Assembly (NCBI GenBank): GCA_000993205.1
Contig: LBVU01000003.1
Location: forward strand, 161,008-225,007
Source: Candidatus Woesebacteria bacterium GW2011_GWB1_39_10
Lineage (GTDB): Bacteria; Patescibacteriota; Microgenomatia; UBA8517
Direction of reading: 5' to 3'
Length of the DNA stretch: 64,000 nt
Both the position numbers and the translations under genes were made by a program. A model generated the notes under the pieces. The model saw only the letters and a list, made by a program, of their open reading frames with translations. It searched no databases and was not told the origin of the DNA. This document shows, piece after piece, positions 3,444 through 40,768 of the stretch (position 1 is its first letter; each line of letters opens with the position of its first letter).

Positions 3444-5558
3444 ATGGACCCTCAGTACGATCACACAAGATACGAGTCGAATATTTATGGTATATGGGAG
3501 AAGTCGGGCTCTTTTTCTCCACAGTCCTCTGCTCACGGTTCACCGTTCACTATAATTATGCCCCCACCGAATGCCAACGATCCGCTTCATATCGGACATG
3601 CCAGATTTATAGCTATTGAAGATACACTAATCCGCTACCATCGCATGAAGGGTGAGCAAACTCTATGGCTTCCGGGAAGCGACCATGCAGGCATCGAAAC
3701 TCAGTATGTTTTTGAGAAAAAATTGGCTAAGGAAGATAAAAGCCGATTCGACTTTGACCACGACACTCTTTTTAAAATGATCTGGGATTATGTCCAGGAA
3801 AATACAGGTGTCATGGAGTCCCAGCTTAAAAAGCTCGGGGCTTCTTGTGACTGGAGCAGATTTAAATTCACACTTGACACCGAAATTGTAAAGATTGTTT
3901 ATAAGACATTCAAAAAACTTGAGACTGACGGGCTTCTTTATCGAGGCGAGCGGATTGTTAATTACTGTCCAAGATGCGGTACCGCCTATTCACAACTTGA
4001 GGTAGACTATGTGGAAAGAGACGACAATCTATATTATTTGGACTACGGAACCGTAACCATTGCAACCACCCGACCGGAAACTATATTTGCAGATGTGGCG
4101 GTCGCAGTTAATCCGAAAGATGTAAAATACAAAAAGCTTGTCGGATCAACCGCAAAAATACCGCTAATTAACCGCGACGTTCCGGTAATTACGGATAAGC
4201 TTGTAGATGTAACTTTTGGGACAGGCGCACTTAAGGTTACTCCGGCTCACGATCCTACCGACTTTGAAATAGGAAAATCAAATAAATTACCGCTAATTTC
4301 CGTAATCGATGAAAAAGGCAGGATGACAGGCACGCCGGAGAAATATATTGGCATGAAAGTATTCACCGCCCGTGAAGAAGTGGTTAAAGACCTTGAACTG
4401 GCAGGAAAGATAAAGAAAATTGAAAAAATTCATCATACAGTTGGAGTGTGTTATCGCGATCACGGAATTCTGGAGCCAATGGTTTCAAAACAGTGGTATG
4501 TCAAAGTCGAACCATTGGCCAAAAAAGTATTGACCTCAATCAAAAGCAAAGAAGTTAAGTTTACGGCCAAAAAATATGAAAAGATTGCAATTCATTGGCT
4601 TAAAAACTTAAGGGATTGGAACATTAGCCGCCAAATAGCCTGGGGTATAAGAATTCCTGCGTATAGATGTGGAAGATGTATGGAGTGGACTATCACAGAC
4701 GGTGAAATTCCGACTAAGTGCGACAAATGCGGCAACGGGATTTTGACACAAGACACTGACACTTTTGACACATGGTTTTCTTCCGGACAGTGGCCGTTCG
4801 CTACATTACAAACCACCAACCCGGGGGATTTCGAAAGGTATTACCCAACAAGTGTTATGAATACCGGGTACGACATTCTCCCCTTTTGGGTAATTCGAAT
4901 GCTTATGCTTGGCATTTACACAACAGGAAAGGTTCCTTTTGAAACGGTTTTACTTCACGGACTGGTCCGGGACAAAGAAGGGCTCAAGATCAGTAAATCT
5001 AAAGGAAACGGAATTGATCCTATTCTGATGTCTGAAAAATACGGCGCTGATGCTTTGCGTATGGGACTTCTTTGGGGCGCTTTAGTCGAAAACGACGTGG
5101 CCCTTTCCGAAGACAAAATCAACGGACAAAGAAAATTTGCCAATAAGATTTGGAATATTGCGAGGTTTGTTCTTTCGAACAAACAGAGTGAAAGAGTTAA
5201 AGAGTTAAAGAGTAAAACTAAAAACACGGACGATGAATGGATACTGAAGGAACTCAAAGACACTACAAAGAAGGTTACAAAAGCTCTTGATAAATACAGA
5301 CTTAATGAAGCGACCGAAGAAATCTATGATTTTATTTGGCACAAATTTGCAGATGTTTATATTGAAAAAGCAAAAGAGCCTTTCGATAAAGAGTCCGGTA
5401 AGATAACTGTTCGAAAAGGCGCAATCCCCACTCTCTACAAAGTCCTCGAATCCGGTCTTAAACTCCTTCACCCCTTTATGCCTTTTGTCACGGAACAAAT
5501 CTGGCACGAGATGGGAAACAAGGGTCTTCTAATCACTGCGGACTGGCCGAAGGCGTAG
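3444..5558 (+). CDS. valS: valyl-tRNA synthetase, compact 704-aa form
   Basis: Class I aaRS with HIGH-like motif PPPNANDPLHIGHA, followed by WLPGSDHAGIETQ, DTWFSSGQWPF and KMSKS motif KISKSKGNGIDP. These match the ValRS pattern (PPPN..GxLHxGHA, GTDHAGIATQ, DTWFSS). Confidence 0.75.
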   Translation: MDPQYDHTRYESNIYGIWEKSGSFSPQSSAHGSPFTIIMPPPNANDPLHIGHARFIAIEDTLIRYHRMKGEQTLWLPGSDHAGIETQYVFEKKLAKEDKSRFDFDHDTLFKMIWDYVQENTGVMESQLKKLGASCDWSRFKFTLDTEIVKIVYKTFKKLETDGLLYRGERIVNYCPRCGTAYSQLEVDYVERDDNLYYLDYGTVTIATTRPETIFADVAVAVNPKDVKYKKLVGSTAKIPLINRDVPVITDKLVDVTFGTGALKVTPAHDPTDFEIGKSNKLPLISVIDEKGRMTGTPEKYIGMKVFTAREEVVKDLELAGKIKKIEKIHHTVGVCYRDHGILEPMVSKQWYVKVEPLAKKVLTSIKSKEVKFTAKKYEKIAIHWLKNLRDWNISRQIAWGIRIPAYRCGRCMEWTITDGEIPTKCDKCGNGILTQDTDTFDTWFSSGQWPFATLQTTNPGDFERYYPTSVMNTGYDILPFWVIRMLMLGIYTTGKVPFETVLLHGLVRDKEGLKISKSKGNGIDPILMSEKYGADALRMGLLWGALVENDVALSEDKINGQRKFANKIWNIARFVLSNKQSERVKELKSKTKNTDDEWILKELKDTTKKVTKALDKYRLNEATEEIYDFIWHKFADVYIEKAKEPFDKESGKITVRKGAIPTLYKVLESGLKLLHPFMPFVTEQIWHEMGNKGLLITADWPKA

Positions 5559-5934
5559 CTTCAGGCGAATTCGTAGGCACGGCAGTTTGTATTGGTGTTG
5601 CTACGGGTGTTGGGGTGGGAACCCTTTTCGAAGAACCAACAAAAAACTTTGACCCGACCATATAAGCAACAGCGACGATAAGGGCTACAGCGAGAAGAAC
5701 TACAGAAACAATTAACAAGGGAGGACTTTTTTTGGGTGGAGCCACCGGAGTTGAAGATTGAACTTCAGGAGCTGTAGGAGGGGTCAGTACGGTTGAAGAC
5801 GGAACGGCGGGTGGAGGCACAACTACCGGCTGCGGTGGGGTTTGCTGCACATTCTGTAAATTTTCCCCTTGCGGCGCGGGGTTGTTCGGATCCATAATTA
5901 AGATTACCACATGTCGGACAAAAAGGTCAAACAA
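5533..5934 (-). CDS. hypothetical Pro/Thr-rich single-pass membrane protein
   Basis: ORF with one hydrophobic helix and low-complexity P/T/V-rich tail; overlaps valS 3' end by 26 nt; could be spurious. Confidence 0.25.
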   Translation of the reverse strand: MFDLFVRHVVILIMDPNNPAPQGENLQNVQQTPPQPVVVPPPAVPSSTVLTPPTAPEVQSSTPVAPPKKSPPLLIVSVVLLAVALIVAVAYMVGSKFFVGSSKRVPTPTPVATPIQTAVPTNSPEATPSASPQ

Positions 5935-27484: not shown

Positions 27485-27545
27485 ATCTATAGCGTAGCTC
27501 GTGAAGTGTTTAATTCAAGCGGTATCCTTTTTCACACCCCGTTTG

Positions 27546-27554
27546 TGGTATAAT
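27546..27554 (+). promoter_or_regulatory. extended -10 promoter element (TGgTATAAT) 6 nt upstream of the ATG, giving a probable leaderless transcript
   Basis: tggtataat at 27546-27554; ATG at 27561. Confidence 0.35.
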
Positions 27555-27560
27555 TTAGCC

Positions 27561-27854
27561 ATGACAATTCCTTCTTTTTTGCAAACATATCTCCCTTCCT
27601 ACGACATTAAAAATCTTGACGGAAAAGATGTTTCTGTCGCAAATGAAATTATTACTAAAGTTCTAAATTTGGGGGATGAAAAAGCTGTTTCCTGGGTTTT
27701 TGACAACTACACAATAGATAAAATACGCGAAGTAGTGGGTAATCCAAAAAAAGGTGTTTGGAACGAGGAGTCTTTAAATTATTGGATGAGCATCCTCAAG
27801 ATTGATCAGGTTCGTGAGAAAAATAAAGCTATTTTAAACATTAACCCTGTATGA
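27561..27854 (+). CDS. small protein partner (putative antitoxin) of the AbiEii-like nucleotidyltransferase, pair 1
   Basis: 97 aa from the ATG at 27561 (ORF-track frame from 27501); overlaps the downstream gene by 4 nt; paralogous to 37230..37496 (shared ..I.E.VLN.G...Y.I..IR.....LNY pattern). Confidence 0.45.
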   Translation: MTIPSFLQTYLPSYDIKNLDGKDVSVANEIITKVLNLGDEKAVSWVFDNYTIDKIREVVGNPKKGVWNEESLNYWMSILKIDQVREKNKAILNINPV

Positions 27855-28489
27855 TTTACAAAAATATTTTAAGCGAAAAACATTTGGAAGTTTTAAAAAA
27901 ATTAAAATCTCTTCCAAAAGGAACATATATGGCTGGGGGAACCGCTTTGGCACTTCAATTGGGACACAGAACCTCCTTGGACTTTGATTTTTGTACAAAA
28001 GAACACTTTGAAACTGAAATTGTTTTAAAAAGTTTTCAACAAGACATACCTAACATAAAAATTGAAAGAGTTGCAAAAGATACACTTATTCTTGATGCGG
28101 ACGGAATAATCGTTTCACTTTTTTATTATCCCTACGAACTCATACGGAATTTGGTATCGTTTGAGAAAATAAACCTGGCTTCAACAGAGGATGTTGCCGC
28201 AATGAAAATAGTGGCAGTGTCTATGAGAGGGAAAAGGCGTGATTTTATTGATGTTTATTATTTATTGCAAAAATTTAGCCTTGAAGAAATCGTAAAATTT
28301 ACAATTGAAAAATATCCAAGCTATCAGCCGATGGTTATTCTTAAGGGTCTTATTTATTTTAAAGATGTCGAGGAAGAAGATTTTTCAAGGGGAATAAAAG
28401 TTTTTGATAAAGATTTTTCTTGGGAGAAAGTTAAGAAAAAGATCTTTGAAGAAGTAGAAAAGTACCAGGCTTCAATAGCAAATATTTAG
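27851..28489 (+). CDS. nucleotidyltransferase of the AbiEii/AbiGii toxin family (type IV TA-like), pair 1
   Basis: LEVLKKLKSLPKGTYMAGGTALALQLGHRTSLDFDFCT, the AbiEii N-terminal nucleotidyltransferase signature. Confidence 0.65.
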   Translation: MIYKNILSEKHLEVLKKLKSLPKGTYMAGGTALALQLGHRTSLDFDFCTKEHFETEIVLKSFQQDIPNIKIERVAKDTLILDADGIIVSLFYYPYELIRNLVSFEKINLASTEDVAAMKIVAVSMRGKRRDFIDVYYLLQKFSLEEIVKFTIEKYPSYQPMVILKGLIYFKDVEEEDFSRGIKVFDKDFSWEKVKKKIFEEVEKYQASIANI

Positions 28490-28490
28490 A

Positions 28491-28893
28491 AATTAGTAGT
28501 TAGAAGTTAGGAATTAGAGAGACTTTTAACCAACCCCGACAGCATTTTCGATATCTCCTCGTTTCTTTTGATGAACTCTGCAACCTTAATTTTATTAAAT
28601 CCGTTTGTTTCCAAAATTATTTCCAACCAACAATTAACCTCAAAAATTGTTTAAAACTTTTTCGAGAATTCCTGCCATACCCCTCAGCAATGTTTGCGGG
28701 GATCGAGCCAACGGCACGAAAAAGTTGATTAAGTAAAAATTGTTTAGAAATTGGCAGTCTGTAATCCGAAAAGTGTTGAATGATGTCAACCGTTAGTTGT
28801 TTTGATTTTTGATAAACTAGCAGATCTTTGTATGAAGTAATTGGCACCTTCATATTATACTAATTCCTAATTTCTATTTCCTAATTACTCTAC
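28491..28893. repeat. cassette C: imperfect inverted repeats bracketing the frameshifted four-helix-bundle gene
   Basis: Left aattagtagttagaagttaggaattagagag against reverse-complemented right aattaggaaatagaaattaggaattagta (28858-28893). Confidence 0.45.
28501..28853 (-). pseudogene. four-helix-bundle protein gene copy C, disrupted by a frameshift
   Basis: N-terminal 78-aa ORF 28617..28853 (LFRAVGSIPANIAEGYGRNSRKSFKQFLRLIVGW) stops early; the conserved C-terminal part (...EIILETNGFNKIKVAEFIKRNEEISKMLSGLVKSL*) continues in another frame at 28504-28620. Confidence 0.5.
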
Positions 28894-33613: not shown

Positions 33614-34062
33614 AAAGGCAAAAATCAAAAATACAAGTAAAAATTTAAAATCAATTTTGACCTTTAACTTCAAAGTTTTGACTTTAGTTTTAGTATACCA
33701 GAAGCTATCATGTTTGATAACTCGGTTACTTCTCTTAGTAAGTCTATTGTATCAACTTTTTGGGAATCATTTAAGAGCATCAACCAATATTTGGATTCGT
33801 TTGCACTCTTTAAGGCTATTTCGTGGAACTTTTTAAATTCCAACCTTGAACTGGAAGCGGTTGCTTCAACCAGGTTTGCACCGATACTTGTTCCACTTCT
33901 AACTAGTTGGTCAGAAATCGCCCAAGAACTTCTTTTATTGGGAAGTGTGTCGAGTAGGGCAATCAAATTCAAACTGAATCTGTAACACCTGTCTTGTAAA
34001 TTGCTTTTATAATTTTGATTACTCATATAATTTTTACTTTTGAATTGTATTTTTGACTTTTA
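33614..34062. repeat. cassette D: imperfect about 35-nt inverted repeats bracketing four-helix-bundle gene copy D
   Basis: Left aaaaggcaaaaatcaaaaatacaagtaaaaattt against reverse-complemented right aaaagtcaaaaatacaattcaaaagtaaaaatta. Confidence 0.45.
33670..34026 (-). CDS. four-helix-bundle protein (23S rRNA IVS protein / Avd-like), copy D
   Basis: ISDQLVRSGTSIGANLVEATASSSRLEFKKFHEIALKSANESKYWLMLLND. Confidence 0.7.
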   Translation of the reverse strand: MSNQNYKSNLQDRCYRFSLNLIALLDTLPNKRSSWAISDQLVRSGTSIGANLVEATASSSRLEFKKFHEIALKSANESKYWLMLLNDSQKVDTIDLLREVTELSNMIASGILKLKSKL

Positions 34063-37165: not shown

Positions 37166-37229
37166 ACAATAACAATTCTAAACTAGTAGACAACTTTGAG
37201 CAAGCTCCTTTGTTTGATATACTTAACGG

Positions 37230-37496
37230 GTGGCAAAAACTCGGTTGATACAAGAATTGGTTAAAAAAAAGCCGTATCTTATATGGCATACCAAAAATTA
37301 TGAACATCTTTCTGAGAGAAGTATTGTAGAAAATGTTTTAAATTATGGAAGCTGGGAGGATTATCTCTTTTTGGAAAAAGTTCTTGGTGTAAAGCAACTA
37401 CGCGGTTTTTTTGAAGACATAAAAAATAAAAAAAGGACAAACCTTAGACCTCAAACAATCAATTATTTTAGCAATTACTTCGGAAAATATGCATGA
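37230..37496 (+). CDS. small protein partner (putative antitoxin) of the AbiEii-like nucleotidyltransferase, pair 2
   Basis: 88 aa; overlaps the downstream nucleotidyltransferase gene by 8 nt; paralogue of 27561..27854. Confidence 0.45.
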   Translation: MAKTRLIQELVKKKPYLIWHTKNYEHLSERSIVENVLNYGSWEDYLFLEKVLGVKQLRGFFEDIKNKKRTNLRPQTINYFSNYFGKYA

Positions 37497-38118
37497 ACAG
37501 CACAAATATAAAGAGGTCTTGTCGAAAAAACAAATTGAACTGTTGGGGCTGGTCAAAAAGTTTTCGGATGAGTTTGGGCTGGTCGGCGGTACCGCAATTG
37601 CCATTCAATTAGGTAAAAGAAGATCAGTCGATTTTGATTTGTTTACAACTTCTGATTTTGACAGTGATCACATTAGAAAAATTATCAGAGAAGAATTTGA
37701 AATACAGTCTGTTTTAGTTGAAATTCCGGGGGAACTTACGGTGATTGTTAATGGTGTCAAGCTTACTTTTTGCAAATATCCTTTTAAAATTACCTTTACT
37801 GAGGAATTTGAAGATGTCATTAAAATGCCGGATTTATTAACTCTTGCCGCAATGAAGGCCTTTGCATTAGGCAGACGCTCAAAATGGAAAGATTATGTGG
37901 ATTTGCACTTTATGTTTAAAGAATGTCAGTTTTTAAGAGTTGTAAAAAGGGCAGGTGAACTATTTGGAGGAGAATTTAACGAAAAATTGTTCAGAGAACA
38001 ACTTTCGTACTTTAACGACATGGATTTTTCTGAGGAGGTTGACTATTTGGAAGGCTTTGAAATAAGTGATGAGTCAATAAAAGAAAAACTAAAAGAAATT
38101 AGTTTGCAAAAGGATTAA
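37489..38118 (+). CDS. nucleotidyltransferase of the AbiEii/AbiGii toxin family, pair 2
   Basis: IELLGLVKKFSDEFGLVGGTAIAIQLGKRRSVDFDLFT; paralogue of 27851..28489. Confidence 0.65.
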   Translation: MHEQHKYKEVLSKKQIELLGLVKKFSDEFGLVGGTAIAIQLGKRRSVDFDLFTTSDFDSDHIRKIIREEFEIQSVLVEIPGELTVIVNGVKLTFCKYPFKITFTEEFEDVIKMPDLLTLAAMKAFALGRRSKWKDYVDLHFMFKECQFLRVVKRAGELFGGEFNEKLFREQLSYFNDMDFSEEVDYLEGFEISDESIKEKLKEISLQKD

Positions 38119-38137
38119 AATTTTGAGCAAGCGTGAA

Positions 38138-40337: not shown

Positions 40338-40768
40338 AATTAGAAATTAGAATAATTAGGTTAATTTACCCATCTTCTGGTAAATCGAATTAAATATTAA
40401 GTTTAGCTCTTTTGCTTCTGTCCAGATAACTTTTATTTTCTCTTTTTGCCCAGGACAAGCCGTTGCCAGCATTCTTAGAAAATGTTTTGACTCTCTTGCC
40501 TCCTTTTTGCAAATTCCAATTTTATGCTTAAAATCTTTACCACTTTCTGCGTCGTCTGCTTCGCAATAATTTGCACCGACACTTGTTGAACATCTCACCA
40601 ACTGGCTAACTAGGGGGTCTGTAATTATACTTTTGGACAATTCTTTGCAGAACTTAATTACATTTTCTCCAAACTTGGCAGTTCTTTCTTCCAGGTCATA
40701 TTTTTTTGAAGCTTCAGACATTGGTTTTTATTTAGGTCAATTAGGAATTAGAATAATTAGGTTAATTG
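40338..40768. repeat. cassette E: 29-nt direct repeats (28/29 identical) flanking four-helix-bundle gene copy E, plus an inverted partial copy at about 40293-40305
   Basis: aattagAaattagaataattaggttaatt at 40338-40366 and aattagGaattagaataattaggttaatt at 40740-40768; the first copy contains the gene's stop codon; ctaattattctaa at 40293-40305 is the reverse complement of the core. Confidence 0.55.
40356..40721 (-). CDS. four-helix-bundle protein (23S rRNA IVS protein / Avd-like), copy E
   Basis: LVRCSTSVGANYCEADDAESGKDFKHKIGICKKEARESKHFLRMLA. Confidence 0.7.
   Translation of the reverse strand: MSEASKKYDLEERTAKFGENVIKFCKELSKSIITDPLVSQLVRCSTSVGANYCEADDAESGKDFKHKIGICKKEARESKHFLRMLATACPGQKEKIKVIWTEAKELNLIFNSIYQKMGKLT

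Follow-up and report, generated by a model that had tools for sequence, protein, structure and literature searches.

Two short gene pairs in the genome of Candidatus Woesebacteria bacterium GW2011_GWB1_39_10 raise the question of what is achieved by coupling an AbiEii-like nucleotidyltransferase (NTase) to a protein of only about 90 residues, and of which partner, if either, is a toxin. Both pairs lie in the stretch of contig LBVU01000003.1 analysed here (64,000 nt, hereafter the window) and are termed module 1 and module 2. The best explanation is that each module is probably a mobile toxin-antitoxin (TA) cassette, composed of an antitoxin of the Pfam family DUF6922 and a short NTase toxin of the DUF1814 family. 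The four genes concerned are the following:

27561..27854, + strand: small gene 1, 97 aa, acidic (isoelectric point, pI, 5.35), six-helix DUF6922-like protein, predicted antitoxin.

27851..28489, + strand: NTase 1, 212 aa, DUF1814/AbiEii family, predicted toxin (PF08843, E 1.9e-13).

37230..37496, + strand: small gene 2, 88 aa, basic (pI 9.7), DUF6922-like protein, predicted antitoxin (PF21956, E 4.2e-3).

37489..38118, + strand: NTase 2, 209 aa, acidic (pI 5.2), DUF1814/AbiEii family, predicted toxin (PF08843, E 9.7e-12).

According to the listing of open reading frames (ORFs), the genes of module 1 overlap by 4 nt (27851-27854) and those of module 2 by 8 nt (37489-37496), all on the + strand, as had been described in a first-pass annotation made from the sequence. 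The span given there to module 1 (27501-28489) was right as to the gene pair and wrong as to its start: the mechanical ORF of small gene 1 opens at GTG 27501, but a length of 96 or 97 aa is shared by 36 of 41 database homologues, and the start is therefore placed at ATG 27561, which yields 97 aa. Comparison with a 90%-identical relative (L013) gave ratios of nonsynonymous to synonymous substitution of 0.089 for small gene 1 and 0.042 for NTase 1, and both genes of module 1 are therefore considered real and under purifying selection.

The AbiEii/AbiGii signature peptides quoted in the first-pass annotation are present, and the Pfam model PF08843 (AbiEii, DUF1814) scored 51.4 bits with NTase 1 and 45.8 bits with NTase 2, against a gathering cutoff of 22.5. 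Cluster mates of these proteins carry the UniRef and NCBI name 'Nucleotidyl transferase AbiEii/AbiGii toxin family protein'. Four motifs were defined for DUF1814 proteins by Dy et al.: hG[G/S]x9-15DhD (motifs I and II), a Lys/Arg motif, K173/R180 in AbiEii (III), and +DxxD (IV) (PMC3985639). In alignments of 14-15 homologues spanning both module types, the two window copies included, residues G29, G30, T31, A32, R40, S42, D44, D46, K119, D131 and D134 are invariant and R126 is nearly so. Motifs I and II read A-G29-G30-x13-D44-F-D46 and agree with the published pattern in both window copies; K119 and R126 form motif III with the seven-residue spacing of K173 and R180 in AbiEii, and R130-D131-F-I-D134, with both Asp residues invariant, forms the DUF1814-specific motif IV.

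These residues correspond to positions of known weight in the mycobacterial MenT toxins. The toxicity of MenT3 was abolished by mutating D80, K189 or D211, equivalent to D69, K171 and D186 of MenT4 (PMC7450476), and the conserved residues of the present NTases match MenT3 S78/D80/K189/D211 and MenT4 S67/D69/K171/D186. The S42-x-D44 arrangement, invariant in 15/15 sequences, puts a Ser at position -2 of the first catalytic Asp, just as in MenT3 (S78-x-D80) and MenT4 (S67-x-D69) (PMC7450476), and as the Thr of AbiEii T65-x-D67 (bioRxiv 10.64898/2026.01.19.700257). MenT3 S78 and AbiEii T65 are phosphorylation sites that switch the toxin off (PMC11375011; bioRxiv 10.64898/2026.01.19.700257).

Predicted structure agrees with the motifs. 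The AlphaFold2 model of NTase 1 has a mean predicted local distance difference test (pLDDT) score of 90.4, and a Foldseek search with it gave JHP933 (5e-7), MenT1 (3e-5, chain 8an5_B) and MenT4 (6e-5) as top PDB matches, with TM-scores of 0.46-0.60 when normalised by query length. A PDB search with a sequence profile of NTase homologues also reached JHP933 (E 2.6e-5). Kinase matches returned by a PDB search with the single NTase 1 sequence were rejected as spurious, the homologue profile being needed to reach JHP933. By all sequence and fold criteria the NTases are thus assigned as complete DUF1814/AbiEii enzymes, for which nucleotidyl transfer to tRNA 3' ends is predicted.

The two modules had been called paralogous, a term that overstates their closeness. 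NTase 1 and NTase 2 are 28% identical to each other and 59-90% identical to their orthologues in other genomes, and for this reason they are best regarded as two old subfamilies rather than the products of a recent duplication.

The small partners had been described as conserved between the two copies; BLASTP gave no pairwise alignment of small 1 with small 2, and their relatedness is visible at the profile level only. Both match Pfam PF21956 (DUF6922) over profile positions 20-52 (small 1, E 2.2e-5, 24.9 bits; small 2, E 4.2e-3, 17 bits; gathering score 27), and the two families are collinear over 78 columns by hhalign (E 3.6e-4, probability 37%), sharing the motifs (P)YL, VLN-x-G-D and NY[WF]. 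The number of homologues found was 41 for small 1 and 43 for small 2 (71-118 aa), and a joint profile of both families reached 532 clusters at 50% identity (E <= 1e-3), with lengths mostly of 80-120 aa among the best 150 of them. DUF6922 was matched by 27 of 33 sampled relatives (best E 2.9e-16), and PF21956 is among the precomputed annotations of some small 1 cluster mates. The small partners are accordingly classed, at profile level, as divergent DUF6922 members. This family has no assigned function, and its Pfam model spans 52 residues of a conserved domain that measures about 85 residues here. A search of the accessible literature found no paper mentioning DUF6922, and nothing on NetFlax together with AbiEii.

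The same proteins had been presented as unknown and unrelated to AbiEi. The second point stands, since models of AbiEi/COG5340 gave no match to them in Pfam, NCBIfam or PADLOC at E values up to 1; the first needs qualifying, since the search against families of the DUF type that had been proposed as a check led to DUF6922, below its threshold. The predicted model of the small proteins (88-97 aa) is an all-helical, compact six-helix domain. Compared with the PDB it produced no fold match: neither a winged helix-turn-helix nor MazE nor an antitoxin chain of 8AN5 was recovered. Where they stand alone, the small proteins show no evident DNA-binding domain.

Conservation of the pair was assessed in 38 loci (L001-L038), all retrieved with the small protein as bait and many of them redundant copies of one pair; scans for loci gave 2 from genome contigs and 24 from metagenome contigs. 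A full-length NTase ORF (203-229 aa) directly follows the small gene in 32/38 loci, either with the last base of the small gene in common or with an overlap of 4, 8 or more nt, and the contig end truncates two further loci (L020, L028). Overlaps range from one shared base, or 4, to about 38 nt, reaching 86 nt with the longest mechanical ORF call. At the DNA level the pairs cluster together, and at least 11 unrelated groups are represented among their 1.5-kb flanks. The pair occurs as well in contigs whose flanks (UvrC, TonB, Dus) are unlike those of the Candidate Phyla Radiation (CPR), with a small gene of 92-96 aa and an NTase of 207 aa, and one locus (L009) holds two modules of different subtypes about 1 kb apart. 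The pair is a conserved, horizontally mobile and self-contained cassette. A small ORF not conserved with the NTase, or an NTase missing its catalytic motif, had been named as grounds for abandoning the first-pass proposal of a variant TA or abortive-infection pairing; what was found is a conserved pair with motifs I-IV invariant, which, along with the absent AbiEi match, supports that proposal. Homologues of the module proteins bear Woesebacteria or Microgenomates names, and a tblastn search of the PLSDB plasmids with two small proteins gave no match.

Possible traces of movement are visible in some copies. Module 2, located between two - strand pilin genes, is bracketed exactly by a 14-nt direct repeat whose copies are 13/14 identical:

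37192..37205, no strand: left copy of the direct repeat, AACTTTGAGCAAGC, just before the promoter of module 2.

38119..38132, no strand: right copy of the direct repeat, AATTTTGAGCAAGC, immediately after the NTase 2 stop codon.

The number expected by chance is estimated at a few tenths per region, and the repeat is a possible insertion scar or target duplication. In L029 a 21-nt direct repeat (2963-2983 and 3909-3929, 946 nt apart), seen also in L001 and L030, carries the final codons (W-K-E-V-A-P-stop) of the host gene upstream, which recur where the NTase gene ends; ...NWKEVAP is the C-terminus of several NTases of the module 1 type. This arrangement suggests how the cassette is inserted or exchanged.

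The 90%-identical relative of module 1 in L013 is followed by a DUF4258/DUF2283 pair and then by a third AbiEii-type NTase of 222 aa (4377-4810 and 4923-5815), together a small TA island. The third NTase is preceded by an 80-aa ORF (...WEVEQLVNFG...) weakly similar to the N-terminal motif of DUF6922 (hhalign probability 13%). The record that holds this locus (contig CAZBTH010000004.1) is titled 'uncultured Gammaproteobacteria bacterium'. The genes on it share 90% identity with those of the window, and their other close homologues come from Woesebacteria; the record is probably mislabelled or mis-binned.

The manner in which the pair decays bears on the role of each partner. Damage confined to the NTase, next to an intact small gene, is seen in at least five independent loci. 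The NTase is frameshifted in L007/L008, where DFD has become DFG, is reduced to remnants in L032, L040 (Mangrovibacterium) and L044, and has been deleted in L036, the small gene remaining intact each time. Elsewhere, deletions have joined the small gene to the NTase, giving four fusion proteins; three of them (P0227, P0184, P0197) have an NTase part without its catalytic N-terminal half and the fourth (P0159) keeps the start of the NTase alone. DUF6922 is also found fused to helix-turn-helix (HTH) domains, with HTH_17 in P0087, where the NTase still lies downstream, and with Xre-HTH in P0167. An HTH domain joined to the neutralising protein is a classic antitoxin architecture, and the upstream position is the usual one for antitoxins. 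The asymmetric decay, the HTH fusions and the upstream, translationally coupled position all indicate the small protein as the predicted antitoxin.

The two partners also differ in charge. The pI values are 5.35 and 6.85 for the small protein and NTase of module 1, and 9.7 and 5.2 for those of module 2. Net charge is opposite between partners in three lineages: type 1 combines an acidic small protein with mostly basic NTases, and type 2 and L009a combine a basic small protein with an acidic NTase. Such opposite charges fit the predicted direct binding of the two proteins.

An alternative origin of the small protein, as a domain split off from longer DUF1814 enzymes, was rejected, as the NTase of about 210 aa already covers the whole Pfam domain. 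The idea is further ruled out by the size of stand-alone enzymes, which the NTase matches (MenT1, 184-195 residues in PDB chains; JHP933, 232 aa), and by the survival of the small gene after loss of the NTase.

Each module appears to carry its own promoter. The elements found are these:

27546..27554, + strand: extended -10 element TGGTATAAT, ending 6 nt before ATG 27561 of small gene 1.

37196..37223, + strand: promoter-like site of module 2 from a consensus scan, TTGAGC and TGaTATACT separated by 16 nt, the latter ending 6 nt before GTG 37230.

In 19/19 CPR loci the start codon is preceded at 5-10 nt (5-8 nt in 18) by an element resembling TGnTATAAT, in upstream DNA that is otherwise unrelated. 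A -10 element next to the start across these 19 loci supports the predicted leaderless transcription of both modules, which had been suggested for module 1. The arrangement was rejected as a trait specific to the modules: eight long ORFs of the window have an extended -10 element 5-9 nt before their start, against 0.13 expected in Markov-shuffled sequence, and leaderless mRNAs appear to be common in this genome. The starts of the eight ORFs are 27561, 28912, 37230, 40774 (- strand), 41206, 43483, 53749 and 56746; the second belongs to a 976-aa gene whose start is probably ATG 28912 rather than TTG 28906. No intrinsic terminator was predicted.

From these elements a mechanism can be proposed. 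Transcription would start at the extended -10 promoter of each module and give a leaderless bicistronic mRNA, antisense to the surrounding T4SS (type IV secretion system) and pilin genes. The downstream NTase, of about 210 aa, would be a toxin of the AbiEii/MenT/JHP933 class. Its predicted action, modelled on that of MenT1, MenT3 and AbiEii, is to add nucleotides to tRNA 3' ends, thereby blocking translation and stopping growth. The upstream, translationally coupled six-helix DUF6922 protein of about 90 aa would bind the NTase directly and neutralise it. Neutralisation would most likely be of type VII, by partner-induced auto-phosphorylation of the toxin at S42, possibly together with occlusion (type II). 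Auto-phosphorylation is regarded as the likeliest mode because S42 is invariant and located where MenT3 S78 and AbiEii T65 sit. Although MenA1, MenA3 and AbiEi are structurally unrelated, each has been reported to make its toxin phosphorylate itself at the Ser/Thr in that position (PMC11375011; bioRxiv 10.64898/2026.01.19.700257). This mode has been put forward as a universal one among toxins of the class. The cassette might then serve in addiction to the island or the genome, in abortive infection, or in both.

Among characterised systems, the closest in architecture is MenA1-MenT1 (Rv0078B-Rv0078A) of Mycobacterium tuberculosis, which also combines a small antitoxin with a short toxin. There too a DUF1814 toxin of about 190-210 aa is encoded downstream of a small antitoxin gene without a DNA-binding domain, and a regulatory Ser/Thr stands beside the catalytic Asp pair (T39 in MenT1, S42 here). 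The small size of the partner, noted in the first-pass annotation as a departure from the usual larger antitoxin, does set it apart from AbiEi, but has a precedent in MenA1 (PMC7450476). MenA1 is a MazE-related, largely disordered protein of 68 aa that binds via one extended helix (PMC7450476, PMC11375011). The partner described here is, by contrast, a compact six-helix DUF6922 domain of 85-97 aa that does not detectably resemble MenA1, or any PDB entry, in sequence or fold; as this partner is not MazE-like, the modules are not of the MenAT1 type. AbiEi-AbiEii (Streptococcus agalactiae / Lactococcus AbiE), MenA3-MenT3 and MenA4-MenT4 are likewise bicistronic with the antitoxin first, and the toxins AbiEii, MenT3 and MenT4 have the four DUF1814 motifs with a Ser/Thr at -2 of the first Asp; AbiEii and MenT3 exceed the present toxin by about 80 residues, and, lacking a COG5340/AbiEi winged-helix antitoxin, the modules are not AbiE in the strict sense. 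JHP933 of Helicobacter pylori (PDB 4O8S / 4OK0) is the best NTase match by sequence profile and by fold and is of similar size (232 aa); unlike the enzymes described here it is a plasticity-zone NTase, and its identity to the present NTase is only about 17%.

Several observations weigh against the assignment of the modules as DUF6922-based TA cassettes. The use of the small protein as bait hides NTases without a small gene, and the asymmetry of decay is therefore partly an ascertainment effect. In the contigs whose flanks are not CPR-like, the partners do not have complementary charges, each being mildly acidic. For a toxin that binds tRNA, the strong acidity of NTase 2 and its relatives (net charge -5 to -9) is unusual. 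At the profile level, the small proteins of the window fall under the DUF6922 gathering threshold, and the type 1-type 2 link has just the 37% hhalign probability given above. Finally, autoregulation is left unexplained by stand-alone small proteins in which no DNA-binding domain is evident.

Three other explanations of the pair have to be considered. In the first, the cassette would be primarily an abortive-infection (phage defence) system of AbiE type with a replaced antitoxin, and not an addiction module that stabilises the island; the molecular parts would be the same and the two roles are not exclusive. The NTases match 12 (NTase 1) and 5 (NTase 2) PADLOC AbiEii models, AbiE has been ranked fourth in abundance among phage-defence systems (PMC11375011), and the modules cluster together and with other TA pairs (L009; L013) in a manner resembling a defence island. 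The small partner, however, has no PADLOC model, and the frequent decay of the toxin suggests weak selection for its activity in many lineages. A primary role in defence is thus a real but minority possibility.

In the second, the pair would be non-toxic, the small protein serving a benign NTase (for example one that modifies antibiotics or repairs RNA) as a chaperone or as a subunit that activates it or sets its specificity. The fold search indeed gave also the aminoglycoside nucleotidyltransferase ANT(2'')-Ia (E 3.6e-4) and CCA-adding enzymes, NCBIfam gave a weak match to Lnu(E) (E 0.078), and not every DUF1814 protein is linked to an antitoxin (PMC3985639). In both sequence and fold, however, the NTases match members of the toxin clade best (JHP933, MenT1, MenT4 and the AbiEii HMM), and neither motif IV, specific to DUF1814, nor the regulatory Ser varies. 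A mere subunit should moreover decay along with its enzyme, and the small protein persists intact beside NTase remnants in at least five independent loci; its HTH fusions, too, are typical of antitoxins. A benign pair is therefore improbable.

The third, a reversed polarity as in HEPN/MNT systems with the DUF6922 protein as toxin and the NTase as a type VII antitoxin that nucleotidylylates it, takes its appeal from HepT/MntA, where the role of antitoxin falls to a minimal NTase that modifies its partner (PMC7641770), but it is very improbable indeed, given that the small gene persists intact with its NTase frameshifted, truncated or deleted (which would be lethal if the small protein were toxic), that it lies upstream and is sometimes HTH-fused, in the position and architecture usual for antitoxins, and that the characterised DUF1814 members are toxins.

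The TA cassette thus being retained as the probable explanation, its surroundings can be described. As the first-pass annotation had stated, both modules lie in a T4SS/pilin island, 9.67 kb apart by the present measurement (about 9.6 kb in the earlier one). The island comprises a VirB4/TraG-type ATPase, PrgI and five T4SS_pilin genes, almost all on the - strand, and both modules are antisense to these surrounding genes. T4SS-like islands of such make-up are typical of CPR bacteria. The GC content of the modules is 0.33, against 0.40 for the window. The VirB4/TraG-type P-loop ATPase (21187-24762, - strand, 1191 aa) is split by an intein with a LAGLIDADG homing-endonuclease domain. Five genes annotated as '23S rRNA-intervening sequence protein' (four-helix bundle, bAvd-like) are spread over the island, all on the - strand, at 25566-25970, 27070-27453, 28617-28853 (truncated), 33670-34026 and 40356-40721. 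Module 1 is flanked by two of them; a similar gene adjoins the module in L013, and in L042 one is found about 1 kb downstream.

The modules do not represent a new kind of system, nor are they a surprise in principle. Partner swapping among TA toxins is well known. Known antitoxin families of DUF1814 toxins are COG5340, COG4861 and the MazE-like MenA1 (PMC3985639, PMC7450476); DUF6922 would be a fourth, structurally unrelated to the other three. Tentatively, and as a proposal more doubtful than assured, DUF6922 could be a widespread (532 clusters at 50% identity) and structurally new antitoxin family for short DUF1814 NTase toxins, which it would neutralise through forced auto-phosphorylation of Ser42. 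If this is true, the modules would offer an independent fourth test case of auto-phosphorylation induced by unrelated antitoxins, with an acceptor Ser that is invariant here, and a Pfam domain so far without an assigned function, comprising hundreds of sequence clusters, would gain one as the antitoxin of AbiEii/MenT-class toxins. In tools such as PADLOC, AbiE is defined as AbiEi plus AbiEii, and loci of the present kind are consequently uncounted, which affects the estimates of TA and defence systems in the genomes of CPR/Patescibacteria.

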